From: Candidatus Uhrbacteria bacterium
Lineage (GTDB): Bacteria > Patescibacteriota > Patescibacteriia > UBA9934
NCBI GenBank assembly: GCA_018664485.1
Contig: JABJOE010000007.1
Span: 68,353 to 132,352 of the forward strand
DNA length: 64,000 nt
Direction: 5' to 3'
Shown one piece after another: positions 7,526 to 62,214 of the stretch. Within the stretch, counting starts at the first letter, position 1. Each line of letters opens with the position of its first letter. Position numbers and translations under genes: made by a program. The notes beneath the pieces were generated by a model, which was not told where the DNA came from, ran no database searches, and saw only the letters and a program-made list of their open reading frames with translations.

Positions 7526-7551
7526 ATAAGTACATCTCTACCAAAAAGACA

Positions 7552-8256: not shown

Positions 8257-8261
8257 AAATC

Positions 8262-8699
8262 TTATTCATCAGGGTGATAAACACCACCCGTATTAACTAC
8301 CAACGCAATATCTCCAAGACGTGACTTTTCAATCAGTCTTTTCTTTGGGATAACTGGCGCAGGCTGTTTTACAACTTTTTCTCGAAGTTGAGCTTTCAGC
8401 GTCCGCGTATCAACTGTCTTGTCCCAAACACGAAGCATCGGCTTACGGAAAGTCTGAATCATGTTTAGAGCAATGTAATGAACCGGTCGCCCGTTAACCT
8501 TCACGAAAGCAATGATGATTCCACCAGCAAGTACCGGAACACCCAAAGCTATAATAGCGATAATGCTGAGGAAAATTCTATAAATCAGAAATTCAGCTAA
8601 TACCGTTGCAAGTAAAATCAAAAATTGTCGCGCCGTAATAGGTCCGATAATCTTCGCCTCGGTATCTAAGAATTGTGGGACAACAAATTGCTCTGGCAT
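8262..8699 (-). CDS. VirB3/PrgI-like small membrane protein (145 aa)
   Basis: Two adjacent TM helices (ARQFLILLATVLAEFLIYRIFLSIIAIIALGVPVLAGGIIIAF) and a position immediately upstream of the VirB4-like genes match the Gram-positive T4SS gene order. Confidence 0.5.
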   Translation of the reverse strand: MPEQFVVPQFLDTEAKIIGPITARQFLILLATVLAEFLIYRIFLSIIAIIALGVPVLAGGIIIAFVKVNGRPVHYIALNMIQTFRKPMLRVWDKTVDTRTLKAQLREKVVKQPAPVIPKKRLIEKSRLGDIALVVNTGGVYHPDE

Positions 8700-8975
8700 C
8701 TTTAGAACTTATGCATTTGGACTATTATCGGCTTGCGGATCTTTTATTTCGCCCAACTTAATGGATAAAAGTATCCTGCGAAGCCGGACCAGGCTCTGCC
8801 TGGCGTTTTCTAGCCGACGTCCGCGCACCGAGACTACCCTCAAATGAATCAGTTCTAAACCTTACACCTATATTATAACATTAATACAAATGTCTCGTCT
8901 CGTACCAGGTTTATACATTTGTGGTCAGTTTAAGTGCGTGGGGAAAACCTAAATATTACAAAACCCAAAATCCAA

Positions 8976-10925: not shown

Positions 10926-10947
10926 GTTAAATTAATTCTACAACGTA

Positions 10948-13929
10948 TTACGGCGTAGCAGTAGGTGGAGGTGTGTTGCGATGAAGTGCCCTGAATTGAT
11001 TAAGCTTTGTAGTAAGTTGTTTTGTAGCACCACCAGCAACCTCAGCCGCAGCATGCTCACGCTCAAGTGCATCAAGAGTTGCTTTTGCAGACTTGCGAAT
11101 ACGATCCTGTAACCCTGGATCCTTATCATCCCCCGCACGGTCATACAAATCAGACATATTCCGGGCAGTTGCAGACGTAGTTTTACTCGCAATAAGCTTC
11201 GTCAAATCCGTAGATCCTTGCGTGCTATCAATATTCGCTTGGAAATTAAAGGTTTGTGTTGGTTGCTGAACGATCATCTCCCTTACAGACTTCTTCTGAT
11301 CCTCACCCTGGAATCCACCTGAACCATTAACAAAATTATTTGCTGCCCCACCTGTGACATCAGCACTGAGATATGCTTTTTGATATTGGCGTCGCTCCTC
11401 AGCAGACAAGTCAGCGTTCTGACCACCTTTCTCCAATTCATCCATGATTTTATTATAAGCCGCCGGATTAGTAGCCTGCATACCCTCAAGGCCACCAAGG
11501 TCTGTTCCTGCCTTCATCATCGCCTTTGCCATCGATTGGATCTTCTTGTCATCCAGCTCACTAACTCCGGCAGTGTTATTGGTACTGAGATGATCAACTG
11601 TTAGATCGGAAATCTTCAACTTCTCGTTCTTAAGGGCCTGTGCAATACGTGAAGGATTCTCAATACCTGCACCGCCGCCTGTACCACGATATAGTTCATC
11701 AAACTTAGCGCCTTCACCACTCGCAGCATTCTTAACTTTAGTACCAACACCGCCTTTTCCGAGCGCGGCTTGATCAAGCGCACTCTCTCTAACAATATTA
11801 TTGTCTTTGTCACGAAATTCACGCATCGTCTTTGCAGATAACGCCTCCAACACATGCTCACTTTCCATATCCTCCTCACTGAGCATACTGATCTTAAAGT
11901 CGTCTCCCATCTCATTAAGGAACTCTGTGATGGCCTGAGTTTCATTACCTGCAGCGGCACCGGCTGCGACACCACGCAAGTTTCCTGCCTTCATCTTGTT
12001 AAGATCAGACTTCTTATCACCAAGCATCGCTTTACCGGAATCACTACCAGACCATTCGAGCACTCTACTCATCTGTTCATCATAAATTTCATTCTGTCGT
12101 TCTTTCATCCAGGCAGCCTTCTCCTTCTCATCAGCGAAATTATTATTCTTACCGGCTTCTGACTTTGCACGCTCTTCAGCAAGTCCCTTAAGCTCTTTAC
12201 GCTCCTTCCCATCTGTAGCTAAACGTGCGTAAGCACCCTCAACCTTATTACGATCTGAAGCTGCCTTTGGCATTTTCGGTCTACCATCCTCACCCATCTC
12301 AAGATCCATAACACTACCAACACGGTGTCGAGCTGTCATGCCGTCAAGTGATTCGCTTGCAGCGGCACGAGCCTCCGCCTGCATAGCATTACCCTTACCT
12401 TCAACCCATCCACCAGCTCCACGTGCAAGGTTTCCAGCTATACGACCAGAGAGACCTCCGCGTGCTTCCATCTCTCCACCAAATCCCTGTACAGCCTTTC
12501 CAAGATTGGAAAAAGTACCTTCACGTGATTCCAGTTGTCGAGCGCCCTCAATAGCAGCCATCTTTCCACCCTTAAGCGCCAAGCGCCCACCAGCCATACC
12601 GGCACGAGCGCCAAGTCGAGCGCCAGCCATACCACCACGTACACCGAGTCGGCCAGTCTTGTAAGCCAAAGACGCAGGCGCCTTAACAGCGTTCTTCACA
12701 AGAGACTTTCCAGTATTTTCGTTAATCATCTTTCCGGCAAAACCACCCATGCCTGATGCAGCGCTACTCGCAGCCTGGAAACCAGCCATAATCAAAACCA
12801 TGGCAAGGAACAAACTCAATAGCTCTTCAATCCGGAATACCTCCGCAAGCAACGATGGCACATCTTCCGTACCTTCAATTGGGAATCCTTCAGATGAAGC
12901 CAAAGACCCCTCGGCTGCGGCAGCAAGTGCAAGCCACAGAAAGAATGTCAAAATCGGCCCCAATGTGACGGCACCAATAAGCTTAGTCCACCACTCCCCC
13001 GCAGGTCCTCCGGCTCTAGGCACGATTTCTTTGATACCACTCAAAAAGAATGCCATTGGAGACATGATAAGTAGTACCCAGATTAGAACAATTCTATAAA
13101 TAAAGACGATCGCTAGCAAAACCAGCACTCCTAAAACAGCAATCATGAATACGAGCGTCGCATATGAGGTCGCAAGGTACCCAAGTCCTTCCATTGGCGC
13201 TCCTCCAGCTGAAAAGTTATTAATGGCGTCGATGTTATCGATGTTGTTTGCAAAGAATGACGTCAGCTGGAACATGTTGACGAAGTTCCCGGCAGCAATA
13301 TCACGCAAAGCGTTTACAAAGGTAAACATCACAACCTGCCCAACGTCGACGATGAGCAATGTAATAGTACGACTGAAGTTTACGGCAACGATCGCGATGA
13401 ACAACCTCGGAAGTTGCTGCTGCCAATTGGCAGATTTAGATCCAATAATCGTTTTAATCGCAATTACCAACAAAATGATAATCACGAACATGTTCACAAC
13501 GTCGCGAACCAAAGGCCAACCGATATCAACGATGTTACTGTCAGCGAATCCGTTGTAGCCCATGATCGGAATGACAACCATTCCCAAAATCAAAACAATC
13601 AGTTTTCCAATAGCGTAACCAATGACGTTTAAAATAAGTGCTGCGAACAGAAGGAGGATGTCGAGCATCGTTCCGATCTGTGAAAGCAACATCTCTCCAA
13701 AATCTTGCGCATGCGCCGGGTGTGCAGCTGCAAACACAAACATGGCAGCAAGAGTACCAACAGTAGAAAGTCGGTTCTTTTGAAGCCATCGTGTGCAACG
13801 CTTAAAGCCGGTGCGCAAGTAGTGCATATCTATACAAAGTATAACACAGCGATCTGTAGTCGCCGTTTTTATATTCACACTCGATATACTGCTGAAAACT
13901 AAGCGCAAAGATGAGGCGCACACGAGCAC
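10948..13929 (-). CDS. VirB6/TrbL-like polytopic membrane protein with a long C-terminal Gly/Ala/Lys-rich hydrophilic extension (up to 993 aa)
   Basis: There is a possible signal peptide ending AHPAHAQD and then at least six TM helices across about 400 aa. A 550-aa low-complexity tail follows. The gene sits between the M23 hydrolase and the VirB3/VirB4 genes. The ORF caller starts at a GTG at 13929, and MHYLRTG at about 13825 is a more plausible start. Confidence 0.6.
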   Translation of the reverse strand: MLVCASSLRLVFSSISSVNIKTATTDRCVILCIDMHYLRTGFKRCTRWLQKNRLSTVGTLAAMFVFAAAHPAHAQDFGEMLLSQIGTMLDILLLFAALILNVIGYAIGKLIVLILGMVVIPIMGYNGFADSNIVDIGWPLVRDVVNMFVIIILLVIAIKTIIGSKSANWQQQLPRLFIAIVAVNFSRTITLLIVDVGQVVMFTFVNALRDIAAGNFVNMFQLTSFFANNIDNIDAINNFSAGGAPMEGLGYLATSYATLVFMIAVLGVLVLLAIVFIYRIVLIWVLLIMSPMAFFLSGIKEIVPRAGGPAGEWWTKLIGAVTLGPILTFFLWLALAAAAEGSLASSEGFPIEGTEDVPSLLAEVFRIEELLSLFLAMVLIMAGFQAASSAASGMGGFAGKMINENTGKSLVKNAVKAPASLAYKTGRLGVRGGMAGARLGARAGMAGGRLALKGGKMAAIEGARQLESREGTFSNLGKAVQGFGGEMEARGGLSGRIAGNLARGAGGWVEGKGNAMQAEARAAASESLDGMTARHRVGSVMDLEMGEDGRPKMPKAASDRNKVEGAYARLATDGKERKELKGLAEERAKSEAGKNNNFADEKEKAAWMKERQNEIYDEQMSRVLEWSGSDSGKAMLGDKKSDLNKMKAGNLRGVAAGAAAGNETQAITEFLNEMGDDFKISMLSEEDMESEHVLEALSAKTMREFRDKDNNIVRESALDQAALGKGGVGTKVKNAASGEGAKFDELYRGTGGGAGIENPSRIAQALKNEKLKISDLTVDHLSTNNTAGVSELDDKKIQSMAKAMMKAGTDLGGLEGMQATNPAAYNKIMDELEKGGQNADLSAEERRQYQKAYLSADVTGGAANNFVNGSGGFQGEDQKKSVREMIVQQPTQTFNFQANIDSTQGSTDLTKLIASKTTSATARNMSDLYDRAGDDKDPGLQDRIRKSAKATLDALEREHAAAEVAGGATKQLTTKLNQFRALHRNTPPPTATP

Positions 13930-13949
13930 GCCCCATCACGTTTTAGCCT

Positions 13950-15764
13950 CTACTCCATCGACCTGCAATCGGTATGCGAGAGCGGTGACAATTCACCAGC
14001 CTGCACCTGAAAACACAGGGCGTGACTCATGTCCTGGTTTTCGTGACAGAGCTCAGAGCTGGTAGACGATGAAAGACAGTCCTGCCAGAACATCGCCCAC
14101 TCACTTTGCGTCCTCATGTTGATGCGATACCAACCCTCATCGAAAGCGTACCAGCCAATGTCGGTATCAGTATCGTACTCAACGAGATAACTCATGTCGT
14201 ACGACCATCCACCGCTCACTCCAACGCCGGTCACGGCAACATCAGCTCCATCTACTGAATTCGAGAACGTTTCACCAATTCGCAAGCCAAGCGCTGCGCC
14301 ATCCACGTAAATCCACGTCAGACCTTCTGCGAGATCATCGGGAATAACCGGCTCCTCCTGCTCATCATCTTGTGTGCCACCAGTGTCGCCTTCGTCTTCG
14401 GACGTGTCTCCCTCCCCCTCCTCGTCGTCTTGAATACCCCCGTCTGCTGAATAGGTTCCCTCAACCGTCGGACCACCACAGGTCATGATGTCGGCACTCG
14501 ACAGGCAATAACTTCCAGAAGCGCAGTCGCCCACCCTACTCATTACCGATCGGATCGAGCCATCGTCCACTTGCATGAGCTCGCGGTCGTACAGATCCAT
14601 CAGCAGATATGTTTCCCAGTCCAAGATAGGCATTGCGATGCCATCTGCGACGAAGTACACGTCCGACTCTCCGGCCTCGGTCACAATCGTTCCGTCTCGG
14701 AAAGGTGTGAAGCTATTTACTACCGGGTAGTGCTCGAGCATATTACTGTCGCCGCTCAGATCATCGTATGTACTCGCCGTAATACCCCAGCTCTTGAGCG
14801 TGGCCTGCCAAGTACTCGTACGAACTCGCTGTGCGTATCGATTTTCGTCATCACCAGCACCGACCAACAGCCAAACCTGGCCATCGTCGTAGAGCGCCCG
14901 GATCTCCGTCGCCGTCTCCAGCATCGTTCCTGTGTCAAAGCAGCTGAGCTCCCTCTCATCAACGATCACCAGATCATCAAAAGAGAAGTTGTAGCTCCAG
15001 AACACCTCCTCATCGAGAATTTCACGTGCTTTGCCACCCTCGATGAGGTAGACGTTCGAATCGCTTGGCGTCTTTACCAATGCCCCGTTTGGATGCCACT
15101 TGGACGTACTCAGTTGCGAATCATAGATATGCCCGTCGTAGAGTCCACAGACGAAGTCTGCGACCGGGATCGTGCGAACGACCGTATTTGACCGGTCATA
15201 AGCACGGATCGACAGACCATCAATGGACGTACCTAGCGAAGCGTTTACCCACGCATCTCCCTCATGGCGACCAATATGAACATGGTCGCCGGTTGCAGCA
15301 CCAGTAGCCCCTTCAAAGCCAAGAATCTGGCCGGAAGCAACTTCTTCACCGTGCTCAATGAGTACAGCACTCAAGTGCGCGAGCAGAATGTAAGTTCCGT
15401 CACCCAAATCAATGTTGATGTGTGTACCGAAGCCATCGGTGCTTTCGTGTACATATGCCGTGCCGCCGATTGGTGCGTAAAGCAAGTCGTCAGACACATT
15501 GGGCGTGTCGAAGTCCAAATCGAACTGCGTTGAGATGTATGCGTGCGAATAGCTTTCGCCCACACCCTGCACACACTGACTCGAGTAGCCCGAAGCGAAG
15601 GGCATATTGATGGTAATCGCATCGCGGCCACCTCCAACGCCGGGACTCACAGTCGACACATCATGATACGCGCCACATCCGCCATAGGACACAACGAACA
15701 TCACCAGCGCCGTCCCCCATGCAATCGCATTGAGAACCGCCAGAACCGTTTTGATAGTCGGCAT
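13950..15764 (-). CDS. secreted M23-family metallopeptidase (peptidoglycan hydrolase), 604 aa, with an acidic C-terminal tail
   Basis: An N-terminal hydrophobic segment (LAVLNAIAWGTALVMFVV) is followed by the M23 motif (FEGATGAATGDHVHIGRHEGD, i.e. HxH) and upstream H/D residues. The gene is the first of the T4SS-like operon and has a local GC of about 55-58%. Confidence 0.75.
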   Translation of the reverse strand: MPTIKTVLAVLNAIAWGTALVMFVVSYGGCGAYHDVSTVSPGVGGGRDAITINMPFASGYSSQCVQGVGESYSHAYISTQFDLDFDTPNVSDDLLYAPIGGTAYVHESTDGFGTHINIDLGDGTYILLAHLSAVLIEHGEEVASGQILGFEGATGAATGDHVHIGRHEGDAWVNASLGTSIDGLSIRAYDRSNTVVRTIPVADFVCGLYDGHIYDSQLSTSKWHPNGALVKTPSDSNVYLIEGGKAREILDEEVFWSYNFSFDDLVIVDERELSCFDTGTMLETATEIRALYDDGQVWLLVGAGDDENRYAQRVRTSTWQATLKSWGITASTYDDLSGDSNMLEHYPVVNSFTPFRDGTIVTEAGESDVYFVADGIAMPILDWETYLLMDLYDRELMQVDDGSIRSVMSRVGDCASGSYCLSSADIMTCGGPTVEGTYSADGGIQDDEEGEGDTSEDEGDTGGTQDDEQEEPVIPDDLAEGLTWIYVDGAALGLRIGETFSNSVDGADVAVTGVGVSGGWSYDMSYLVEYDTDTDIGWYAFDEGWYRINMRTQSEWAMFWQDCLSSSTSSELCHENQDMSHALCFQVQAGELSPLSHTDCRSME

Positions 15765-16423
15765 TCCGACTCCATTTGTAGAAGTACATGAGAAACGTAA
15801 TCGAAATGATCAACGGCCTCCCTTTTTGTAGGAGTCCCACAATTTGCGGGGGTAGAAAAAGTGAACGTTGAGTACTTCGATATATTGATTCGTGCGGGGC
15901 GGGCCGAAACCCACCCCAGAAGGACGAACACGAATCGTTGCGATCCTCACTCCCCATAAGGATCTATAGACTGTCACTCATCGATGACATATGTCAGGAT
16001 CTCGCGATGAGCGTTGTAACCGATGCGGTCTACACAATAACCAGGACGGCGTTTGATATGCGGCTAACAATTCTCTCTCCTCATGTTGCTACATACGTTT
16101 ACGGGCGGGCCAGTAAATTGCGTTTCGTTTTTGCAGAGGTTCCTACATCCATTTCCTCATGTACACAGACCATCTGCAATAGTTCTTTTAGTGTGTTCTG
16201 GCTGTTTGCTGTCAAAGTGATTTGGCAGCCTGTTTATTTTTGTAATGTTGAGCGCTACCGATGGTGTCATCGTTACTCGACAGCTCATGGGGACAACATT
16301 TTTGAGAAATAATCACGGCGCAAGATTTGAAATAGTTTTACAGAAACTTTTTATAAAAAAGCATCAATCCCCGCCCGAGAGTTCTCGGACGGGGTCATAC
16401 GCTTTAAATCTCACTCTACGCTA

Positions 16424-17226
16424 TCAGGGTTTGAGGTTGCTGAGGCATGCCGCCTTGCGAGCTTTTCTCGCTGCGTTTTCTTGTTCCTCTTCGTCGCGCC
16501 ATTCTCGGATAAGCTTCTCGATTCGCTCTTGGTCTGATCCGCCTTGAGCTTCGCGTACTCGGAGCTCTTCGATGTAGCTCGGCGTGAATTCCGGAGTAAA
16601 GGCGCCGCCCGGATATCTCGCACTACTATGTGCACCCGGGAATTCTTCAGAACACGGCGAGTAATCAGTGATGATCATTGCAGTCACATGCACAGGCTCT
16701 GCAAGCTCGCCCGTTCGAAGGCCGCATGGGTCACTTGGCATCATGCACTTGCGTGCAAGCATTTCCACCGAGCTACGCTCGTTGCCGGCGCTATCATAGT
16801 AGATCCAGCGATCCGGGTCATTGACCTTACCGTGAACCCAGAGAAGTCCAATCGCCATAGCTACAGCAACTACGCGAGACATCGCCTGGCCACGGCTCAC
16901 AACTACACGTCTCCATGGACGGTTCTTACTTCCCCATCCGGCTCGTTCGTATACAGCACCCTCCCACCAATTGACATCGAACAAGCCAGGCGCGATTACG
17001 GAGTCTGCCGAATCAGGATCTCCGGGTGCGTAGCGGGGATCGGTATCTGACGTACCGCTGCCTCCGCCGATTCCGAGTTCTTGTATGACCGCTCCGGCCA
17101 GTGAATCATCCTCACCTACGTCTTCGTAATCAGGCACCCTTACACGTGGAGCCCCCTCAGGCCTTGGTCGTGAAGCAGCTCTGCGCGACCGTCCTGTAAC
17201 CGTACCTCTTACTGGAAATCTACTCA
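16424..17226 (-). CDS. hypothetical protein (267 aa) with an Arg-rich N-terminus and a central TM helix. It lies in a GC-rich islet.
   Basis: An ATG at 17226 is preceded by GGAGAGGAGG. The ORF caller extended to 17278. The sequence includes RVVAVAMAIGLLWV. Confidence 0.5.
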
Positions 17227-17621
17227 TGAAGCCTCCTCTCCCCCGGCACACGATAAAATTTAAATAGTATTTCGTCAAAACAATTATGTAGTCTTGGTTG
17301 AGAGTTGGATATATTTGAAAATTTCTGTTTTAGTTGGCTAGATTTGGCGAAAAGTTATTCAGTAGTTATGCACAATCGTAAATATATGAATTAGGCCGAA
17401 ACTAGCAATAAACATGAGTTTTTGTGTAGTTTTTGAAAAATCGTTTAAACTTCGCCAATTTTGTTCATGGATGGTTGACAGATCCATTGACTTTTTGGCT
17501 AATCCATGCCATGCTATAGATAGTTTCAAGGAGTGCGTCTTGCATTTTCCTGATCCCGTTCTTTCTGAGTCCGTTAAATCGGACATGCTGTAGCTGCAAC
17601 CCCCACCCACAACTCGAGGTC

Positions 17622-18332
17622 ATGATGCGCTTCCTTAGCCTTCTCACTCTCGCTGTGGCCCTGGCGGGCTGCGGCAATTCCAACAACCCAGACGCCGACG
17701 ACGGAAATGTCGGAGGCACCGATACGGACACCACGCTCAACGGCACCGCGTACTTCACGCCTGGCGGCATCGGCATCACCGACAGCGACGGCAACGTCAA
17801 CGTCGAAAGCTGCACCTCCACGCTGTACGAAGATGACGAGACGCTCAACTACGGTCTGACCGGCGAGACTCTCGCCGTCCCTGTGGCGAGCAACGGCGAC
17901 ATCGACGTCACTGTGAAGCACGGAAGCCCCGAGCTCGTTGGCTGTGACGGTCAGTACCTCCACCCCAGTGGCGGTCAGGACTACATGGCCTTGGACACCG
18001 AGTCCACGCTCAACGACGGCGACACCGAAAACGGCGACAGCCCCATCGGCTTCACCTACTTCGAGTGGGATGGTCAGCTCGACTGCTCTTTCTCGGACGA
18101 CTTCGGCTGGGAAGACGACTGCGATGGCGTGAACGACGCCACCAACGATGCTGGTAAAACCTGTGTCGACAATCGCGGCAAGCTCTCGATCTGCAATGAC
18201 AAGATCGACTTCAGCACCGGTATGGTCAACGGCGACGGTGTTTTGACCGATGTCGAAGCGACTGAGGCTGGACTGACACTGACTTTCCAGAGCAACGGTG
18301 TGAACACTCACGTGAATTGCACGGTCCGCTAG
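17622..18332 (+). CDS. Asp/Gly/Thr-rich lipoprotein (236 aa)
   Basis: Signal peptide with a lipobox, MMRFLSLLTLAVALAGCGNS. The mature part is Asp-rich. GC is about 60%. A GC hairpin plus T-tail follows downstream. Confidence 0.6.
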   Translation: MMRFLSLLTLAVALAGCGNSNNPDADDGNVGGTDTDTTLNGTAYFTPGGIGITDSDGNVNVESCTSTLYEDDETLNYGLTGETLAVPVASNGDIDVTVKHGSPELVGCDGQYLHPSGGQDYMALDTESTLNDGDTENGDSPIGFTYFEWDGQLDCSFSDDFGWEDDCDGVNDATNDAGKTCVDNRGKLSICNDKIDFSTGMVNGDGVLTDVEATEAGLTLTFQSNGVNTHVNCTVR

Positions 18333-18353
18333 TTCGGCCAGCGATCACCTTGG

Positions 18354-18396
18354 CCCCCGACATCCACCCTGTGGTGTCGGGGGTTCTGTGCGTTTA
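18354..18396 (+). terminator. GC-hairpin terminator of the islet family
   Basis: CCCCCGACAtccaccctgtggTGTCGGGGG is followed by TTCTGTGCGTTT. The tail matches the GGGG-TTTCGTGCGTCT tails found at 37104, 37536 and 45418. Confidence 0.5.
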
Positions 18397-18526
18397 AAAA
18401 CAGTTAGAAAAGTTTTTTAGTAACTAGGTGACTAAGTCGTTGAGACGTAAAAAGAAAACACTGGTGTTAACCAGTGTTTTCTTGCTTAGTTACTCAATAG
18501 CTAAATTATTCAGCAGCCCTCCACCC

Positions 18527-21500
18527 CTACGGCGTAACGTAAATATAACCATCATAATACACCCATGGATCATAGCCCGTGGCACCGTCAGGATACCGTT
18601 CGAAGTTACAGGAATAATTACTTACCTGAGCTCCAGCTACACTCTCATCAAAACAACCTTCATCGTCATCACAGATTCCAGTACACCATCCCCAGTTATC
18701 ACGAACATGTACTTTCGGCTGATACACACATGAAATTTCATCATATGTACATGGACTTACCTCTAAGTCGTTTCGATCATTCTCCGTACAGGTTGGTAAA
18801 TCTTCTGGAGCCCAGCACCTATAAGTGTGGGAATAGTTGAATTCATTAGGATCGCAAGTGTTACTAGTCAATCCCCATGCAGTATCTAGATCACACTTAG
18901 ATAGGGTACTCGTGTCATCAGATCCATCATCTTCACCATCCTGCAGACCGCGGTGGTTTTTATAATAGTTAGCTGCATCATCTGATCCAGATGTATCTCC
19001 ATCACCCCAGTCCACAATGATTCTACGTATTGGCAATTGATTCTTGTCTGCTGCTGCAAAGAATTTTAATGTTGCTCGGTAATAACCTCCCTCAGCCTCT
19101 ATATCTCCTTCATTTGTACTGTTAACTGTTAGTGCATCATCCTCATCCTCGTGACAATATTTCGTTCCACAATCCTCAGTATCCACTGACCAGACAGTAG
19201 GCGCCGATCCATATGTCTCACGCACATCACTTCCTGCGTCGTCACCTATATAATCACTTAGTGTTGTACCAGAAGCTCCTAGCTCCGTATCTTCATCCGC
19301 ACCATCACAATCCCCGTCACATACCTCAACGTATGACCCTTCAATAGTGTCATAATCCCCTATTTCTTGCTCTGGACCCTCCCAGTACCAAACACCTTCA
19401 AAATTAGCAAAGATTGAATTCATGCGGGTAATAACGGTACTCACACTATCACTCGTATCCCAACCGATGCTTGAGAGATCAAATGCAGGACCATTCAACT
19501 GAACAGTAAAGTCTGCATACGATCTAGCACTTGGGTCATCAGAATCCGTACTGTACGTATAGTCACGAGCGCTACATTCGCTACCAGCACCCGTTGAAGG
19601 TACCAACTCATAACAATCTCCAGTTCCGGTACCAGCATCCTCACAACAAGCAGGAATACGTACTGGAGCTAATCCAACCGGCGTACCATCGTCATCGTCC
19701 AAATCTACAGGATCTATGGAGGCACCATAAGGACCAGGTGAACTTTCTAGATCGTAACCAAGAGTAGAGATAGTTGTATCATAATTCGTTGACCACAATC
19801 GATCAGTCCAAGCAGCATTCTCACCAGGTCCGTTAGAAGTTTTAATGATCACCGTACAAGCCGGATATTTAAGAGGGTTGAGATACGCTTGGTAAAAACC
19901 ATCCCCGCCATCTGTACAACTTGTATTGCTAGAACATCCGCTCTGATATCTTAGATTGTCATACGTATCATTATCTGTATCACGTGGAACTCCCGGAATA
20001 GCACAGCGCTTCGCCTCATCAGCTACCACGTCAAAATTACCATTTAATGCATACACCCTATTAGTATGCCCATCATAATTCGCACTCCTTGTGTCATACG
20101 AAGGACTTACACCGGCGCGGTCAATAATACTATCAATATCACATTCACCTCCCGTATCAATATCTTGCGATCCATACGGTACACATACATAAGGGCAATC
20201 GTTCGCTCCTCCATGGTCACACTGCTCAGCATAGTTACCACTTCCATCAAAACTTTTCTCACACTTACCCATAAGTGCGAAATACCCATCATTACAAACT
20301 GCATTATCATCACAGTTCAAGTAGTTCTCACTACTTCTACTTCTACAAACTTGATTACCGTGTGTTTCGGCACAAGAAATAGACTCTGTTGAATATCCAG
20401 ATACCGACTGAGTAAATCCATGTTGAGTAGAGTTACTTGTATAGAAGTCCATGTATAGCTGAGTGTACCCACAATAGTAAACCTCCTCGGTATACCCTGC
20501 CCCTGAATACTTCGCATACAAGTCAGTCGCACCAGATACCTGATCAACCGGGAACCATGTCACACACGCACCCAGAACTTCATCTCCATTAATGTTCATT
20601 CCTGTGTCGCGCTCCAAGCAATATCCTTCGAGTCCGAAGAAGTCCTGAGATCTCGTTATCTTGTCACAGTTTCCAATATGACCATCTGCTCCGTAAGATC
20701 CATCTGACACAAATGAATCATCATAGTATCGGCAGTCATCATCGTCCCCACATAGCGCTCCGGCAACCGGTGAATCGGAAGAACAAACACCATTAACATT
20801 TATATCGCCTAGATCTGTTTCGTACGCTACGAATTGATCTCCGGATGTTTGGGTACCGACTCGAACATATGAACATTCACATGTTTCACCCGGCGCACAG
20901 GTTTGCGCAGACGAGAACCCTGCCTTCCAAGATGACGGAAGCATTCCTCCATAATAGTTGTCTGTACCAATAGTTTCGCCGTCAGCCGCGATGTCATCCA
21001 ATGTTAGTTGCTCTTCGGTTGTTTCAAGATCTACTACAGTACCACCACTCGCTGTAGTAGTCGCTGTTGAATCATCAGTATGTGATCCATATCCAAGATA
21101 AGACCACTCTGTCACCACATCAATTGTAAACGGACTGTCAGCTTCTGGTTGCGCTCGGCAATATGCATCTTCCGTTACCTCTGAGTCGAATTGGTTTCCG
21201 TTCACCGCCAAGAAGCATGTTCCGCCATAACATGACCCTTCTTTCGCAGCAGCTGATCCGAAACATGTGGATTCTTCATCCTCGCATGTAAAACTAGTAT
21301 TACAATTACCTGTTTCATCCACACATGACCCGGCAAGACAAATATCAGTTCCACTACAGTCGTCATCTTCTTCGCATGTATCGGTTGACACTGTGTAACA
21401 GACTCCCGTAATACACGAATCGCCATCGATTTCACAGTCATCGCTTTCGGCACATGCAGATCCGGTGCTTTCACAATACCCAACGGTACAATCCTCTGAA

Positions 21501-24500
21501 TAATCTTCAGAACAGTTTCCGGCAGAGTATCCGATTTGGTAATCATTATCGCTTGTAAGTACACATCTTCCAGTATCCGTACTACCACCACTCTGACAGT
21601 ATGAGTCGTCTTCGCATGGTAGGCCGTGGTAAGTCTCCCATGGCAAATCATCTTCAGTATACTCATTACTCATGTCACAGAATCCTGCAGGTGGCGCTAC
21701 ATTCACCTGCGTTAAGTGCTGAATTGGGAAAATGTCTGGCACTGCATAACCTGAATACTCCTCTCCATACCAAGACACATCACGCGAAACATAGCGATCT
21801 GTATCAAACACGACAGCTGGATCGTTTGGATCCCACTCACTACACAATGAAGCGCTTGAGCTTCCGCCGTATTCTGTACACAAATCAATTCCGTCACAAA
21901 TAGTTCGATACTTTCCGGCATCTCCATCCCAAATAGTGTAGGAAGAAGAGCACGCAAGCCACTCAGAGCATGTACGGTCACGAGTAACCTTTAATACACG
22001 GTTTGAATCATTCTCAAGTCGATCGGGTTCAATAGCGATATTGACTTCATCTGTAAAACAGAATCCCGCGCTACTGTCGCCAGTATCTGTGTCATATGCA
22101 GGACAGTCTGAGTTATCGATACATGACCCACCGTACTCATATGCATCCGTAAAGTCTGGGTAGTCGGCTAAATCAAAGTCGGAATAAAGGAAACCTTTGT
22201 ACCAAGCACATCGTTGATCACACAAATCGATCTCGGTACCATCTGGCGTTACCATCAATGACGTAGCTTCCGAAGTACAGTCAATCGGATCAACAAGTGC
22301 GAATGCGCGATCACCATGCAATTCGTCAGCACGAGCGGACGAGATATACGTTGCAGATGAGTTGTAATCAGACGCCGTATCTCCAGCATCGTTAAACAGA
22401 GCACAACCAAGCTTTTGGCTGACCTGTCCATTACATTGCTGTGAAGACAATAGGTTCGTCTCATCAAGCGATGCGTTATCTATATAGTAGTAAGATTCAC
22501 CGTCTGTTGTTCCGTAAAATTCGTCATCATCGAAATCTAGGCGATCTTGGAATTCGGTACATGCTGAGTACTCAGGCTCACAAAGCCCTACCCAGCTATC
22601 AAATTCATCATCACCATTTCGCCAGATTCCACTTTCAGTTCCACCGACCAGGTATGTACCTGTGTCGACAGAACACTCTCCGTAACTTGTATTAGTAGTA
22701 GTATCGTAACAATCTGCGTCTGATGAACATGAAACTTCATCTGACCCATCAAGCTCTGCACAAACACCTGTTCCATAACAGAACTCGTTCGTACCATCTC
22801 GGAACCAACCGTCATACAACTCTCCATCAACCGTAATACTCGTCTTATATTCACAAGTATGTCCACCTGGGTTCTTGAAGTACCAAGTACCTTCAGATCC
22901 GGCATTCCATTCCTGACAGAACAATTCATCTTCTTCACAAAGAATGTCATCGTAACTATCTGGATCATTCATGAGGTATACAGTCTCCCAGCTATCTACA
23001 ACCGAAAGGTCTGCGCTAAACACCGGCTGTCCCAACTCCTCACAACCGTTATCTGCAGAGTTACATCGCACGGCATCTGTGACGATAGCGTAGATATCAC
23101 GATCAGCCTCAACTACCGTCGCATCTGGACCGTAATCTAGATGGAACATGTGAGCTTGTGTATCTAATAGATTCTCTGGAATGAACCAGTCTTCGAAATC
23201 GAACTCACAACTATCATCTCCGGCAATAATCGTACACAAAGCGGGAGATTCTTCATCGAATCCCTGACCGTCGTCGTCTATAAATAGATAACAACTTGTT
23301 CGCTCGTCACTCGTTGTAGGACTCTCCCAGTTTGTACCGTTACAATCCGAAGCCGATGAACATGCATCTCGTGATTCGCTACATAGCCCTGAATCACATG
23401 TCTCTACCTCATCAATATTGTTACACGTTGCATTGTATACAGTTATACCAGGCTCTTCTGACTCATTTGTCTGGTAGTACGCGTCACAACCAACCTTATC
23501 TTCATCACATAAAGTGCTGAAGGACTTCAAGTAAACAGTTTCAAAATCATGATCAGTGTACTCCTTACAACCAAGATGATATTGCGCAGACAATTCACCG
23601 TCTAGATTTTCATCACAAGATGCAGGAGTTACCCATGAATCTTTGATAACCGTAATATTGTCCTCCCCTTCTCGGAGAGTAACGTTGTCGATATAGAATG
23701 TTGATCCTGACGTTTCCGGCATGAATACCAACGATGTACCGTTTCCAAATTCTTCGTAGTCATCCTCGGTCATGTCGAGAGGTCCAACTGTATAGTGCTG
23801 CCAACCACTTTCAAGGTCGACATATGTTACCGCCTGACAATCGCTGTCGAGTGAACATGTAGTCGTACCGTCTGCAGAACACAAGCTGTCGCTACATACA
23901 GATCCGAATTCAGCCTCAAGTGCAATCGATGTTGAATCAAACTCCGTATCGAAACCAACGCTCAAGTCAGTAGTTCCCTTAGCCCAGAAGCTCAAGGTAT
24001 ACGTCTTTCCAGTAAAGAGCTGGTTATTCAACGTTCCACAGTAAGTATCTCCTTCGTCAACCGTACATTCACCTCCCAAGATGGATCCTGAGCTATCACA
24101 ACCTCCGTCAGTTGTACATTCAGCGGAACCGTATACATAAGTCCAAATATCCAAACCATCTGACCGGATTGAATGACCGTCTGTTGCGACTGATTCATTT
24201 GAAAGTAGTACGGATGTAGCGCTTGATGATTCCCAATCGGCAATCGTTCCACTTTCGAACAAATCCTTAAGTGCTACACGGCTATTTCCAGAGCTTCCAC
24301 CAGTATATTGGCGACAACCAGATTCTGTCTCCGAACACACAGTACTTTCTTCGCTATATCCAAAGTATCGGCATTCACCGTTGTCGTCATCGAAGAACCC
24401 ACCAGAACCATTACAGTTATCTTCTTGCTCGGAAGCGTCGTCGCCAACAATGTCAGTCTTTCGATACGCAACACAAGCGTTATTCACAGTTACAGTATCT

Positions 24501-27500
24501 GACCACTGACGGAAGTGAATTTCACCGTCAACATCGTAGAATTCTCGACAGTCTGGATTTTCAATAATATCAGCGTGAGAATCACAATCTTCAGTATCAG
24601 AATCTAGAGCACTGTCACCATCACTGTCATCGATACACTCTAAAGTCTCACCGTCAGTTGTTTCAGCCTGCCAAGTTGTACAAGGCGCAGCACCAGGGGC
24701 GTCATCTACTTCAGTGGAACCTGCATGCGTTATATCTGAATAACTATCCAAATCAGACTCTAGAAGCTCCCAAGTTCTCAACTGGTAACCTTCTTCATCT
24801 GATCCTTCCCATGTGTAGAAAGTAGCAGCACCATCGCTATCATCTGCCTGCTCTTCTGTGATACAAGCGCGCAAATATGTGTAATATTCTTTTCCTTCTG
24901 TAACTAAGTTTGTAAATTCGTCACAACCAACCGCATCTTCACTACATTGATCGGCGGTCTCTGGAATAAAGTAGATTGGGAACGCTCCGTCTGGCTCATA
25001 CAATGTCTCCTCCTGACGGAATGTGTCATACCCGGAACATTCTGACGGACATTCATCCAATTCAGTAACAACTGCTGTAACACCAGGATCTCCATTTGCC
25101 GGAGTGTAAAGCGTACAACCAGCTTCCTGCTCAGTACAAATTCCGGCATAGTCAGCACATTCGTCTGGATCACTCGCAGAACCGGTACATCCAAGGTAAG
25201 CCGGCGGCAAGATAACGGAATCAGTAGTGTAGTTACCTGTGTTGTATCCAGCATGATAAGACGATGCGTCTTCAGCCTGTTCTATTTGAACATCATCGAT
25301 CCAAACATCCGCACCTGAGAAACTTGTGATTGCGTAAATGTCTAAAGTTTTATCAGTAAGAATAGGTGTAGTGAACGTACACTCGAACCGTTCATATGAA
25401 GTTGAGTCTGGAATAGCGGTAGTATCTTCAATCAAAATTGATTCATACGTTGTACCGTCAGTATCAATGTCGGCAATACTACAGTCCCCTCTATAGCTCG
25501 TACCACTCAACTGAACCTGAGTACCATTTTCATCAGTAAGCCATACATACGCGTCAACACCGTTTGTATTCGCACTATCAGTCTGTGCTGCGTAGAAACT
25601 GAATGAATAGAACCTGCTTTGCTGAAGCGTTGTTCCATATTTGTAGAAACTACCAGAAGCACCTGGGCTAATTGCCGCATCTCCAGTACGTCCTACGTCG
25701 TTTTCTGTGTCATATGTGGCATCACTCAAAATCCATGTATCTGGCCACTCATCACTATTTGCATCCGTTTCAAAACCACCGTTTGTCATCATGTTAAGCC
25801 GAAGATCATCAGTACGTTCAATCACCTCTGAACATCCGCCAGAACCTTCGCTACATGTCTCAACATTAGCATTGAAGTAAATTCTATCCTTATAGACGTC
25901 TTCATCCTCATCTTCAGCCTCAACGCTAGGAATGGAAGGCCAGTCATATACATCTTCAGAATCAAGCTCCTTTACCGTCTCATACCAAGTACAACCCTGG
26001 TTATTAACGCTACAGTCTCCGTAATCTAAAGTATTTGTAAGGAAATCAACAGGAACATCGTCTACATCGGTAAACGACAAACAACTAGCGTACTGCTCAG
26101 GGCATTCATCCCCTCGGAAGCGCCAAATGTTTTTCTCACGTACACAATACCCATATCCACCAGTACAGTTTCCGTAAGCATCTTCTTGAACACAACTCTC
26201 AATATCAACACATTCTTCAGCGCGATCAGCTGTACCAGCACTCTTTAGAGTTTGTCCGTAAGCCAATGTTCGACACTGTGTATCTGGGAACTTCAATACC
26301 CAATCAGGATCGATAAGGTGACACCATGGGTGCTCATCATCCAATTCCCCATCGCTATTACACTGATGGAATCCATCCATGACCTCCTGAAGTGTAATCG
26401 GATCTGATTCAGAGTTTGCTGGTGATTCTACCGCTAGCTCCCAACCAGTTGAAATAACACGCGCGCGACGCATCTTTACTATATTGGAATGACAGAAACC
26501 GTAGGTGTAACATTTAGAATCTTGATCTCGAGCCGAATCTGCAGCCGAAATAAGTGGCCAGCCGCCATCGATGTAACCCTCTTCAACAGCCTCAATAAGT
26601 GTTAGCGGGGATCCGGCGTCAGCACGAGCAACGGCTGATGCAAACGACGTATCTATAGCACAGTTAAACAGCCCTGGTTGACTTCCGCGGAATGTAGCAG
26701 GACATGTTGAAAGTTCGGATAGTAATGAATAGTCCGTAATACTCAGAGGTCGGAAAGATAGAATATCCGAAAACTGCTCAGCAATTCGAGATGAATCGTA
26801 AGAAGAAGTTCCATCTGAATCAAACGGATCGTAATCAGAAGAATACTCAGGATAGCTTACCACCTCGTCAAAAAGACCTCCACGCCATCGACCCATTAAA
26901 GTCGTGATCAAAGTGTTTGTGAATATCGAAGCAGCACTTGATCCAATTCCAATAAGTGCCTCTGAGTTACTAAGCAACCCTATCGATATATCAGTTGGTA
27001 GAGTTTTTGCTGCGAACAATGATTGATACAGATCCGAAGACACAAATGACTGCGGCGTCAGTCGCGCTCCAGTAATCGGATCTACAACAGGCTTAAACCC
27101 ATCTGCTTCAGTATTTTCTTCAGCGCCAACAGTCGCCTCTTCAGCCGCTTGCTCAGTTGAAGTCATCAGGATTTCAAGTCCAGCTCCGATTTCGCTCACA
27201 CTTGGATCAAACCCTTCTGAAATAACGGAAAGAATCGCTACCGTCTTCTCCTCTGCTGTAATTTCTGAATCAAGAGAAAGTGTTGCAAGATAACCTTCGA
27301 AGTTTTTAGAAACCTCTGGAAAGTCACTCTCAGGAACTGCTGACTGTTGAGTTGATCTCAAACCAAGACGCATCGCCTGCAAGATATCTTCGTCATCCGT
27401 AAGATAGACTCCAAAATCCGGAAGAATACCACCGCTTGTAATATTATCAGGCACAATCCCATTAACTAGCTCGGCAACCACACCAGCCGCCAGATTGTCC

Positions 27501-27823
27501 ATGTAATCCTGCGTTGGTAGAGAGTTGTAGAGTGGGGCACCAGCATTTCCACCAGTTCCAACCCAAAGCGCTGACTCATAGGCAAACTTATTTGCCATGT
27601 AGCTAAGCAAGTTCAAAAGCGCCGCTGTAAGTGCCGCAATAAGCGCCTGCTTAATCACTGCCTTAACATTATCAACGATAACCTTTGCAGCATCACTTGC
27701 CACAACGTCTGGAGACAACGCATATACCGGCTTTGGAATACCGGCTACAAGTACAAAATTGAAAATCAGCGCTACAAGTATGAAGGCTGAACCAAGTCTA
27801 GATTTAAATCCTTTAGGAATCAT
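18527..27823 (-). CDS. giant secreted or cell-surface protein (3098 aa). It is Cys/Asp/Thr/Gly-rich with an N-terminal signal anchor and at least two CBM4/9-like carbohydrate-binding-type domains.
   Basis: A single uninterrupted 9297-bp ORF starts MIPKGFKSRLGSAFILVALIFNFVLVAGIPKPVYA. It has hundreds of Cys in short spacings (C-x-C and C-x3-C). Two segments match the CBM_4_9 pattern: NGGFE...W...RFYSFSFYAAQ...VWIDDVQIE and LFESGTIADWE...TYTLSFWAKG...FYIDNVTL. Only short antisense ORFs overlap it. Confidence 0.8.
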   Translation of the reverse strand: MIPKGFKSRLGSAFILVALIFNFVLVAGIPKPVYALSPDVVASDAAKVIVDNVKAVIKQALIAALTAALLNLLSYMANKFAYESALWVGTGGNAGAPLYNSLPTQDYMDNLAAGVVAELVNGIVPDNITSGGILPDFGVYLTDDEDILQAMRLGLRSTQQSAVPESDFPEVSKNFEGYLATLSLDSEITAEEKTVAILSVISEGFDPSVSEIGAGLEILMTSTEQAAEEATVGAEENTEADGFKPVVDPITGARLTPQSFVSSDLYQSLFAAKTLPTDISIGLLSNSEALIGIGSSAASIFTNTLITTLMGRWRGGLFDEVVSYPEYSSDYDPFDSDGTSSYDSSRIAEQFSDILSFRPLSITDYSLLSELSTCPATFRGSQPGLFNCAIDTSFASAVARADAGSPLTLIEAVEEGYIDGGWPLISAADSARDQDSKCYTYGFCHSNIVKMRRARVISTGWELAVESPANSESDPITLQEVMDGFHQCNSDGELDDEHPWCHLIDPDWVLKFPDTQCRTLAYGQTLKSAGTADRAEECVDIESCVQEDAYGNCTGGYGYCVREKNIWRFRGDECPEQYASCLSFTDVDDVPVDFLTNTLDYGDCSVNNQGCTWYETVKELDSEDVYDWPSIPSVEAEDEDEDVYKDRIYFNANVETCSEGSGGCSEVIERTDDLRLNMMTNGGFETDANSDEWPDTWILSDATYDTENDVGRTGDAAISPGASGSFYKYGTTLQQSRFYSFSFYAAQTDSANTNGVDAYVWLTDENGTQVQLSGTSYRGDCSIADIDTDGTTYESILIEDTTAIPDSTSYERFECTFTTPILTDKTLDIYAITSFSGADVWIDDVQIEQAEDASSYHAGYNTGNYTTDSVILPPAYLGCTGSASDPDECADYAGICTEQEAGCTLYTPANGDPGVTAVVTELDECPSECSGYDTFRQEETLYEPDGAFPIYFIPETADQCSEDAVGCDEFTNLVTEGKEYYTYLRACITEEQADDSDGAATFYTWEGSDEEGYQLRTWELLESDLDSYSDITHAGSTEVDDAPGAAPCTTWQAETTDGETLECIDDSDGDSALDSDTEDCDSHADIIENPDCREFYDVDGEIHFRQWSDTVTVNNACVAYRKTDIVGDDASEQEDNCNGSGGFFDDDNGECRYFGYSEESTVCSETESGCRQYTGGSSGNSRVALKDLFESGTIADWESSSATSVLLSNESVATDGHSIRSDGLDIWTYVYGSAECTTDGGCDSSGSILGGECTVDEGDTYCGTLNNQLFTGKTYTLSFWAKGTTDLSVGFDTEFDSTSIALEAEFGSVCSDSLCSADGTTTCSLDSDCQAVTYVDLESGWQHYTVGPLDMTEDDYEEFGNGTSLVFMPETSGSTFYIDNVTLREGEDNITVIKDSWVTPASCDENLDGELSAQYHLGCKEYTDHDFETVYLKSFSTLCDEDKVGCDAYYQTNESEEPGITVYNATCNNIDEVETCDSGLCSESRDACSSASDCNGTNWESPTTSDERTSCYLFIDDDGQGFDEESPALCTIIAGDDSCEFDFEDWFIPENLLDTQAHMFHLDYGPDATVVEADRDIYAIVTDAVRCNSADNGCEELGQPVFSADLSVVDSWETVYLMNDPDSYDDILCEEDELFCQEWNAGSEGTWYFKNPGGHTCEYKTSITVDGELYDGWFRDGTNEFCYGTGVCAELDGSDEVSCSSDADCYDTTTNTSYGECSVDTGTYLVGGTESGIWRNGDDEFDSWVGLCEPEYSACTEFQDRLDFDDDEFYGTTDGESYYYIDNASLDETNLLSSQQCNGQVSQKLGCALFNDAGDTASDYNSSATYISSARADELHGDRAFALVDPIDCTSEATSLMVTPDGTEIDLCDQRCAWYKGFLYSDFDLADYPDFTDAYEYGGSCIDNSDCPAYDTDTGDSSAGFCFTDEVNIAIEPDRLENDSNRVLKVTRDRTCSEWLACSSSYTIWDGDAGKYRTICDGIDLCTEYGGSSSASLCSEWDPNDPAVVFDTDRYVSRDVSWYGEEYSGYAVPDIFPIQHLTQVNVAPPAGFCDMSNEYTEDDLPWETYHGLPCEDDSYCQSGGSTDTGRCVLTSDNDYQIGYSAGNCSEDYSEDCTVGYCESTGSACAESDDCEIDGDSCITGVCYTVSTDTCEEDDDCSGTDICLAGSCVDETGNCNTSFTCEDEESTCFGSAAAKEGSCYGGTCFLAVNGNQFDSEVTEDAYCRAQPEADSPFTIDVVTEWSYLGYGSHTDDSTATTTASGGTVVDLETTEEQLTLDDIAADGETIGTDNYYGGMLPSSWKAGFSSAQTCAPGETCECSYVRVGTQTSGDQFVAYETDLGDINVNGVCSSDSPVAGALCGDDDDCRYYDDSFVSDGSYGADGHIGNCDKITRSQDFFGLEGYCLERDTGMNINGDEVLGACVTWFPVDQVSGATDLYAKYSGAGYTEEVYYCGYTQLYMDFYTSNSTQHGFTQSVSGYSTESISCAETHGNQVCRSRSSENYLNCDDNAVCNDGYFALMGKCEKSFDGSGNYAEQCDHGGANDCPYVCVPYGSQDIDTGGECDIDSIIDRAGVSPSYDTRSANYDGHTNRVYALNGNFDVVADEAKRCAIPGVPRDTDNDTYDNLRYQSGCSSNTSCTDGGDGFYQAYLNPLKYPACTVIIKTSNGPGENAAWTDRLWSTNYDTTISTLGYDLESSPGPYGASIDPVDLDDDDGTPVGLAPVRIPACCEDAGTGTGDCYELVPSTGAGSECSARDYTYSTDSDDPSARSYADFTVQLNGPAFDLSSIGWDTSDSVSTVITRMNSIFANFEGVWYWEGPEQEIGDYDTIEGSYVEVCDGDCDGADEDTELGASGTTLSDYIGDDAGSDVRETYGSAPTVWSVDTEDCGTKYCHEDEDDALTVNSTNEGDIEAEGGYYRATLKFFAAADKNQLPIRRIIVDWGDGDTSGSDDAANYYKNHRGLQDGEDDGSDDTSTLSKCDLDTAWGLTSNTCDPNEFNYSHTYRCWAPEDLPTCTENDRNDLEVSPCTYDEISCVYQPKVHVRDNWGWCTGICDDDEGCFDESVAGAQVSNYSCNFERYPDGATGYDPWVYYDGYIYVTP

Positions 27824-27845: not shown

Positions 27846-28538
27846 TTATTCTGCTTCGGCTATATCAATAGTTTCTTCAACAATAGCGTCAATCTCTCCG
27901 GATTCTTCCAAGTCGCCCAATACGGAATCATACAATGACTGCAAATCTTCATCAGAAATTTCAGAAAGCTGTTCTTCAGTTGCTCCAGCTTCTATCAAGA
28001 GACCGCGGATGTCATCAGGACCGAAATCTTTCAAAGCATCCGTTATGTCCTCCACCGCTTGTCCGTCTGTAGAGATAGAATCTAGATATGCAGACAAAGC
28101 TTCATTTTCAAGTCCAACTATCGAGTACTCATCTTCGCAGCGTCCACCCGCAGCACATGTCGGATCGGTACCTGCTTGAAGTTCTGTAAAATCGTTATCG
28201 CCGTCGCCATCTGTGTCAGCCAAGTACATGCTCGTTCCAAAGATGTAGAGCTCATCGTAGTCAGAAAGTAAATCACCGTCTGTATCTGATACTCTCTGGT
28301 CGGCGATCTCCTCTTCCCGTGCTTGATCTGAAGTTACAAACCGCTCACCCTCGTACTGAATATTAAAAGGATCAGACAGATGGTCGAAAAGATAAACAAC
28401 TCCCAAGATAATAGCGAGGAAGCCGCTTGCTACAACCAGAAAAAATCCAGCCCGTTGCTCACGTGTGAACGAAGGCTTTGTTTTTCTAATCTTTACGCGA
28501 TTGTCATGCACTTCAGGCATGCGACGAGCGATGCTCAA
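27846..28538 (-). CDS. membrane-anchored acidic protein (230 aa) with tandem DxDxDG-type (dockerin or thrombospondin-type-3-like) Ca-binding motifs
   Basis: TM helix GFFLVVASGFLAIILGVVYLF, with the motifs DTDGDLLSDYDE and DTDGDGDNDFTE. The gene is 22 bp upstream of, and co-oriented with, the giant gene. Confidence 0.55.
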   Translation of the reverse strand: MSIARRMPEVHDNRVKIRKTKPSFTREQRAGFFLVVASGFLAIILGVVYLFDHLSDPFNIQYEGERFVTSDQAREEEIADQRVSDTDGDLLSDYDELYIFGTSMYLADTDGDGDNDFTELQAGTDPTCAAGGRCEDEYSIVGLENEALSAYLDSISTDGQAVEDITDALKDFGPDDIRGLLIEAGATEEQLSEISDEDLQSLYDSVLGDLEESGEIDAIVEETIDIAEAE

Positions 28539-62135: not shown

Positions 62136-62214
62136 TGGTGGGTCCGGATGGACTTGAACCATCGACCACGGAGGTATAAGCTCCGCGCTCTAACCAGCTG
62201 AGCTACGGACCCAC
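62136..62214 (-). tRNA. tRNA-Ile (anticodon TAT, read from the DNA)
   Basis: GTGGGTCCGTAGCTCAGCTGGTTAGAGCG-CGGAG-CTTATAC-CTCCG-TGGTCGATGGTTCAAGTCCATC-CGGACCCACCA. The stem is 5 bp, U33 is followed by TAT, and A is at position 37. Confidence 0.75.

Follow-up and report, generated by a model that had tools for sequence, protein, structure and literature searches.

Two divergent CBM_4_9-type beta-sandwich modules in a giant hypothetical protein conserved among Candidatus Uhrbacteria

The window analyzed here is a 64,000-nucleotide stretch of the genome of a Candidatus Uhrbacteria bacterium (contig JABJOE010000007.1, positions 68,353 to 132,352). It contains a giant open reading frame (ORF) on the minus strand (window 18527-27823; 9,297 nt), whose product of 3,098 amino acids (aa) is identical to the GenBank "hypothetical protein" HON52_03220 of Candidatus Uhrbacteria bacterium. 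A first-pass annotation of the window had singled out two segments of this giant protein as carbohydrate-binding modules (CBMs) of the CBM4/9 type. The locus raises the question of whether these segments truly belong to a CBM family and, if so, what such modules do in a protein of this size. We found that both are anciently diverged members of the CBM_4_9 family (PF02018), real but divergent, and we consider below what they might bind.

All of the motifs quoted for the two segments were found in the ORF, and the coordinates given for them were right to within a few bases. Counted from the first to the last quoted motif, segment 1 covers aa 678 to 849 (window 25277-25792) and runs from MMTNGGFETD (aa 678-687, window 25763-25792) through RFYSFSFYAAQ (aa 737-747) to ADVWIDDVQIEQ (aa 838-849, window 25277-25312). 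Segment 2, counted in the same way, covers aa 1188 to 1387 (window 23663-24262), beginning with LFESGTIADWE (aa 1188-1198, window 24230-24262), passing through TGKTYTLSFWAKG (aa 1271-1283), and ending with TFYIDNVTLREGE (aa 1375-1387, window 23663-23701). As folded units in the AlphaFold models described below, the CBM_4_9-type beta-sandwiches comprise aa 676 to 848 for module 1 (window 25280-25798, minus strand) and aa 1182 to 1386 for module 2 (window 23666-24280, minus strand). The characteristic motifs are NGGFE...PDTW, RFYSFSFYAAQ, and VWIDDVQIEQ in module 1 and LFESG...W, SNESxAxDGHS, GKTYTLSFWAKG, and FYIDNVTLREGE in module 2. The interval 23670-25800, to which the pair had been assigned, does hold both modules, but the roughly 330 residues that lie between them (aa 849-1181) are non-CBM-like.

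We scanned the giant protein and each segment against Pfam with a reporting limit of E ≤ 10, under which the HMMER filters drop most matches above about 0.1. PF02018 was the sole family reported for the whole protein (23.4 bits) and for each segment. With the gathering score of this family set at 25.9 bits, segment 1 fell just under the cutoff (24.7 bits, E 3.3e-5), and segment 2 was also under it (17.9 bits, E 4.1e-3). Nearly all orthologous segments match the family as well. We prepared two alignments of orthologous segments, A1 for segment 1 (39 sequences) and A2 for segment 2 (41 sequences), and scanned their members singly; 33/39 and 39/41, respectively, matched PF02018 at E ≤ 0.01, with best E values of 1.3e-9 and 6.4e-7. 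The family was likewise matched by all 16 full-length orthologs that were scanned, among which no other Pfam family recurred, and most orthologs of the giant protein carry a precomputed PF02018 match.

A deep profile search, carried out for segment 1 only, compared the A1 profile with 1.84 billion representative proteins and returned 2,024 matches at E ≤ 1e-3. Included were multi-copy CBM proteins outside the giant-protein family, found at E values of 1e-17 to 1e-31, several of which score 60 to 140 bits on PF02018; among the proteins reached are some with GH42, CBM9, or type IX secretion sorting domains. Because the orthologs match PF02018 and the profiles link to true members of the family, the homology of the modules to the PF02018 superfamily is secure, and they are members of it by transitive homology and by fold. 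When single segments were compared with PDB sequences using phmmer, nothing meaningful was found, and CBMs in the PDB were reached by the ortholog profiles only. These profile matches were divided among CBM4, CBM16, and CBM22, with E values of 1e-5 to 5e-2. Since the matches are spread evenly among families, we do not assign the modules to CBM4, CBM16, CBM22, or CBM61. At E ≤ 10, neither the whole protein nor either segment gave a match to PF06452 (CBM9_1); the modules are therefore not CBM9, and the "9" in the name CBM_4_9 is no proof that they are. The original "CBM4/9" label thus holds in the sense of the PF02018 superfamily, with motifs in register with those of the CBM4 structure 1gui, but not in the sense of CBM9, and no CAZy family is assigned.

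The sole family reported in a scan against NCBIfam was NF048003 (GTA_spike_fiber, from the head-spike fiber of gene transfer agents [GTAs]), which scored 24.1 bits on segment 1 (E 4.4e-5) and 13.2 bits on segment 2, both below the cutoff of 36 bits. Half of the 16 full-length orthologs (8/16) matched it at E ≤ 0.01, with a best E value of 2.8e-11, and CBM_4_9 and GTA_spike_fiber were the only families found in these orthologs by Pfam and NCBIfam together. We read the NF048003 match as the probable mark of a related CBM-like sandwich, not of membership in that family. A search of PHROGs gave one weak tail-fiber match, to segment 2 (E 0.015).

To these sequence comparisons we added AlphaFold2 models built with the ortholog alignments, which are predicted and not experimental structures. 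Both segments were modeled as confident, all-beta sandwiches, with a mean predicted local distance difference test score (pLDDT) of 89.6 and a predicted template modeling score (pTM) of 0.86 for segment 1 and values of 88.1 and 0.84 for segment 2. Foldseek searches of the PDB placed CBM61 (2xom, E 4.7e-6), CBM16, CBM4, and CBM22 at the top for segment 1 and a porphyran-binding CBM (8xmz, E 4.6e-5), CBM22, CBM16, and CBM61 at the top for segment 2. For both segments the top PDB matches had E values of 5e-6 to 1e-4, target-normalized TM-scores of 0.5 to 0.7, and a probability of 1.00, and CBM61, CBM16, CBM22, and CBM4 were ranked within one order of magnitude of each other. Among viral models, segment 1 matched the "CBM-cenC" modules of phage tail-fiber and receptor-binding proteins at E values of 1.7e-7 to 1e-5. 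Taken with the profile results, these models leave us almost certain that both segments adopt CBM_4_9-type folds. The first-pass annotation had named the lack of a significant hidden Markov model match and predicted folds other than jelly-roll beta-sandwiches as results that would speak against it; neither was observed.

The two modules differ from each other in several respects. Module 1 contains two conserved cysteines, C781, which is kept in at least 90% of 16 orthologs, and C815, which is invariant, together with a hypervariable, indel-rich loop at aa ~786 to 805. In module 2 there is a four-cysteine excursion (C1236, C1242, C1253, and C1262; window 24038-24118, minus strand) that is invariant in 16 diverse orthologs and was modeled with high confidence; the PDB modules examined showed no counterpart to it within the stretches that aligned. 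A loop of the same module holds a lineage-specific insertion (aa ~1308-1333, window 23834-23902, minus strand), ~25 residues long and with a further four cysteines, which has low pLDDT and is lacking in about 90% of the orthologous segments in the alignment. Aromatic residues conserved among the 16 orthologs include W697, Y739, and Y744 in module 1 and Y1275, F1279, and W1341 in module 2. The segment 1 ortholog profile detects segment 2 weakly, and when the profiles of both modules were compared by hhalign, the alignment was confined to the central YTLSF[YW]AK strand, with a probability of 67%. Because the alignment covers just this strand, the modules are not recent duplicates, and a tandem duplication was dropped as an explanation of the pair. 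No further cryptic copies of the modules were found in the giant protein, in 53 homologs, or in a six-frame translation of the window.

A search with the whole protein returned 53 relatives, of which 48 are full-length-type orthologs of ~2,600 to 3,300 aa with 33 to 62% identity, and each of these 48 has exactly one copy of either module at the same positions. We also surveyed one genome per species with segment 2, which yielded 112 relatives, of which 80 loci were kept. Both modules were present ~1,500 nt (~500 residues) apart in 77 of these; in the remaining 3 the contig ends too early to tell, and thus all 77 testable genomes were positive. Wherever the record of a segment 2 relative names a lineage, it is Candidatus Uhrbacteria or the Patescibacteria group. 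Many other records with the giant gene are titled "uncultured Gammaproteobacteria bacterium" (L004, L005, L010, L012, and others) and come from third-party co-assembly projects; over segment 2 their versions are 30 to 66% identical to those in Uhrbacteria- or Patescibacteria group-titled records. These titles look like placeholder or wrong taxonomy.

Conservation is not uniform along the protein. Mean column identity in module 1 is 39% versus 57% in each of its flanks (aa 351-675 and aa 849-1181), which makes module 1 the most variable island in the conserved core; module 2 is intermediate, at ~50% when its insertion is left out. A protein search with aa 351 to 675 returned only ortholog fragments. 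Five more distant relatives, P0049 to P0053 (2,487 to 3,713 aa), share 26 to 27% identity with the giant protein over 31 to 47% of its length; P0049 to P0052 keep a segment 2-like module and P0053 keeps a segment 1-like module. Since these proteins keep single modules, the core ortholog group may be part of a larger superfamily of giant proteins.

Outside the modules, no catalytic or other domain was found in the giant protein or its 16 orthologs by Pfam, NCBIfam, or a profile search of the PDB. A whole-length profile of the protein had 1gui as its sole PDB match. With PF02018 as the sole Pfam family and 1gui as the sole PDB match, ~88% of the protein is uninterpretable by these methods, having no detectable homology outside the family. 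A search of a literature library found no description of this protein family. The composition of the protein is nevertheless informative: it is very acidic (599 D+E versus 132 K+R) and contains 144 cysteines, nearly all of which are kept across orthologs and probably form disulfides. The N terminus (aa 1-36, window 27716-27823, minus strand) consists of a basic stretch followed by a hydrophobic segment ending in ...PVYA/LS, as judged from sequence and hydropathy. Only aa 7 to 36 gave hydropathy windows above 1.6, with a borderline region at aa 55 to 74, and we infer that aa 1 to 36 form a putative Sec signal peptide or signal anchor. The hydrophobic leader and the composition suggest that the protein is exported; an extracellular location fits the protein, given this leader and the conservation of almost all of its cysteines. 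As an exported, disulfide-rich protein it may also bind calcium.

Two further features of the protein were noted. The motif C-x3-[SD]-[DY]-C occurs in seven copies, at aa 1323 (CSLDSDC), 1488 (CSSASDC), 1901 (CIDNSDC), 2070 (CEDDSYC), 2124 (CAESDDC), 2150 (CEEDDDC), and 2358 (CGDDDDC). It may represent a small disulfide or calcium-binding knot that is spreading within the protein, and one copy, of the form C-x3-SDC, lies in the lineage-specific insertion of module 2. Near the C terminus is a highly conserved block, ...KNQLPIRRIIVDWGDGD...NYYKNHRG..., with a WGDG motif (aa 2935-2943, window 18995-19021). This motif recalls PKD-type beta-sandwich domains; a Pfam scan of the giant protein gave no PKD match.

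We consider it probable that the two modules are non-catalytic, lectin-like binding modules of a secreted giant surface protein, and we lean slightly toward glycans as the ligands that they bind. Their nearest sequence relatives, CBM4-2, CBM16-1, and CBM22, are characterized sugar binders, and from the fold family it can reasonably be inferred that the modules mark the glycan-recognition part of the giant protein, as the first-pass annotation had suggested. Proteins of the predicted-adhesin class found on the cell surface are essential in one bacterium of the Candidate Phyla Radiation (CPR) that was surveyed genome-wide (PMC11665869). The modules would fasten the giant surface protein to polysaccharide on a partner or host cell or on the cell's own envelope, and variable surface loops would tune their binding specificity. 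As the most variable island within the conserved core, module 1 fits the specificity-bearing part. Several observations weigh against this interpretation, beginning with the PF02018 scores of both segments, which lie under the cutoff. The usual enzyme context of CBMs is missing, since no carbohydrate-active catalytic domain was detected; a catalytic partner domain is not obligatory for CBMs, which also exist in lectin-like and phage receptor-binding contexts. In addition, PL18 alginate lyases have a CBM16-like pro-domain that binds the catalytic domain of the same enzyme and is not reported to bind carbohydrate (PMC5651945). The Foldseek lists of the two segments also hold non-glycan binders, such as Cry1Ac, Vip3Aa, and the K1 to K3 adhesin domains of gingipain, as well as Stig cyclases and the receptor-binding domains of the iota and CDTb binary toxins. 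Finally, the giant gene occurs at one locus per genome record, with strict synteny and full-length conservation, a pattern closer to that of a core structural component than to that of a host adhesin, which typically evolves fast.

Much of this would suit modules that have kept the CBM fold without binding sugar and that act as rigid spacers, mediate protein-protein interactions, or aid folding within a large assembly associated with the envelope. The non-lectin uses of the fold among the Foldseek neighbors and in the PL18 pro-domain, the lack of a detected enzyme domain, and the core, syntenic, single-locus behavior of the gene all argue for such a role. However, the closest sequence relatives of the modules are the sugar binders named above, the nearest above-threshold relatives sit in proteins with GH42 or CBM9 domains, and phage receptor-binding proteins with a CBM-type module are usually held to recognize polysaccharides of the cell surface; we judge a role without sugar binding to be rather unlikely. 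Glycan-binding modules could also serve to target an unrecognized catalytic domain elsewhere in the giant protein, for example a new cell-wall or polysaccharide hydrolase directed at a host envelope, which would make it an enzyme and not an adhesin. Glycoside hydrolases are the classical carriers of CBM_4_9 modules, a GH42 protein (P0172) is among those reached by the A1 profile, ~88% of the giant protein has no detectable homology, and the very conserved blocks at aa 351 to 675 and aa 849 to 1181, with their mean identity of 57%, leave room for an enzyme fold of a new kind. Searches of Pfam, NCBIfam, and, by profile, the PDB detected no catalytic family, however, and we hold this explanation to be improbable. 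That the likeness arose by chance or from the composition of a long, low-complexity acidic protein would be compatible with single-sequence Pfam scores under the curated cutoff and with phmmer searches of single segments that found nothing meaningful in the PDB, but it is effectively refuted by the orthologous segments that themselves match PF02018, by profile links to true PF02018 members with E values down to 1e-31, by the confident AlphaFold beta-sandwiches with a Foldseek probability of 1.00, and by a module position that is kept in 77/77 genomes.

A wider picture can also be sketched, which as a whole we regard as speculative and doubtful. The giant protein would be a lineage-defining surface organelle of Uhrbacteria that attaches to or probes partner cells, with the modules reading partner glycans and the loops at aa ~786 to 805 and ~1296 to 1335 setting specificity. 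The other 88% of the protein would consist of new folds or harbor a new envelope-attacking activity, and a neighboring thrombospondin-type-3 protein would provide the anchor.

This neighbor is a 230-aa protein encoded directly upstream on the same strand (window 27846-28538, minus strand), 22 nt from the giant gene. It contains a single hydrophobic helix together with acidic, calcium-binding repeats of the thrombospondin type 3 (PF18884, 25.3 bits), and an equivalent protein of 213 to 247 aa is encoded directly upstream of the giant gene in 3/3 orthologous loci; it is possibly a partner or membrane anchor of the giant protein. Upstream synteny is strict and comprises, in this order, GroES/GroEL, a release factor, sugar epimerase/dehydratase genes, Sua5, KsgA, the thrombospondin-type-3 protein (~213 to 250 aa, with one membrane helix), and the giant gene. 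The giant gene is chromosomal and conserved, with housekeeping genes around it, and nothing else at its locus looks phage-like.

Downstream of the giant gene, two pairs of ORFs overlap on opposite strands, 17574-18311 (minus) with 17622-18332 (plus) and 16424-17278 (minus) with 16544-17050 (plus). None of the ORFs in the regions 17574-18332 and 16424-17278 had a Pfam match or similarity to the related locus L001 (by tblastn for 17574-18332), and a search for a terminator-like site after the giant gene found none. Because the gene that follows the giant gene in related loci is on the opposite strand, the plus-strand ORF next to it may be the real one. The window is richer in G+C at 14000-18400 (51 to 53%, versus 44 to 46% around it). 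Further downstream is a Gram-positive-type type IV secretion-like cluster (window 5603-15764, minus strand) with an M23 peptidase (13950-15764, minus strand), a VirB4/TraG-type P-loop ATPase (5603-7525, minus strand), 993-aa and 649-aa proteins that had no Pfam match, and a 234-aa ORF; a PrgI-family protein occurs in the same gene series of the related Uhrbacteria locus L002. Such a cluster is found near the giant gene in related genomes as well, with ~3 to 9 kb of variable genes between. Since this distance varies and the intervening genes are unrelated, and with the next gene lying on the opposite strand in the related loci, a functional link between the giant gene and the cluster was considered and not adopted. 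At the other end of the window, ARAGORN identified a tRNA-Ile with the anticodon TAT (UAU) at 62136-62212 on the minus strand. A tRNA-Ile with a UAU anticodon is uncommon in bacteria, in which AUA is usually decoded by a lysidine-modified CAU tRNA.

At the level of domains these results are routine: an already very large superfamily gains two divergent sandwiches of the CBM_4_9 type. Their value lies in the context, in that nothing but these modules can be interpreted in a lineage-wide, ~3,000-residue "hypothetical" protein. To our knowledge, no Uhrbacteria bacterium has been cultured so far. The modules, at ~170 to 205 residues each, are small enough to be expressed alone and therefore offer a practical experimental route to the ligand of what appears to be the largest surface protein of the lineage.

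Among characterized proteins, the best profile match for both modules is CBM4-2 of the Thermotoga maritima laminarinase Lam16A (1gui, CBM4), with E values of 7.9e-4 for module 1 and 6.6e-5 for module 2. The N-x-x-F-[DE]...PDxW start, the central G-K-T-Y-T-[IL]-S-F-x-A-K strand, and the C-terminal [FW]-x-D-D-V strand all align, and in the hidden Markov model (HMM) alignments the 1gui stretches NNGTFDE...PDEW, GKTYTISFKAKAD, and IYFDDV are in register with the motifs of both modules. All three are beta-jelly-rolls of similar core size. The E values are marginal, however, and the query profile was aligned only in part. Unlike 1gui, which has 155 residues, the modules are longer (173 and 205 residues) and have extra loops, with the conserved four-cysteine excursion added in module 2. 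CBM4-2 is attached to a GH16 enzyme, whereas the giant protein has no detected enzyme domain.

CBM16-1 of Caldanaerobius polysaccharolyticus ManA (2zew, 2zex, 2zey, 3oea, and 3oeb) is the second-best profile match of module 1 (E 1.4e-3) and is among the top Foldseek matches of both modules (target-normalized TM-scores of 0.64 to 0.66, probability of 1.00), with 13 to 19% identity in the structural alignments. What we take to be the ligand-stacking Trp of CBM16-1 aligns to a non-aromatic position of module 1, in an alignment too weak to interpret, and a transfer of CBM16-1 ligand residues via the HMM alignment was abandoned as unreliable. The xylan-binding CBM22 modules of Paenibacillus barcinonensis Xyn10C (4xup, 4xun, and 4xuo) and Clostridium thermocellum Xyn10B (1dyo and 1h6x), which are attached to GH10 xylanases, make up most of the top Foldseek matches of module 2 (E 7.6e-5), at 10 to 14% identity; the CBM22 tandem 4xup is also a weak match of the module 2 profile (E 0.05). 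CBM61 of Thermotoga maritima (2xom), the top Foldseek match of module 1, and the porphyran-binding CBM 8xmz, that of module 2 (target-normalized TM-score of 0.70), are alike in fold only and showed no significant sequence relation to the modules, with 8xmz at an E value of 1 against the module 1 profile.

A different kind of likeness is offered by the CBM-cenC modules of phages and the head-spike fiber domain of GTAs (NF048003). Unlike the genes for these proteins, the giant gene sits at a locus without other phage-like features, and the NF048003 score of 24.1 bits compares with a cutoff of 36 bits. What they share with the giant protein is the setting in which the modules occur, that of a non-enzymatic context of cell-surface recognition.

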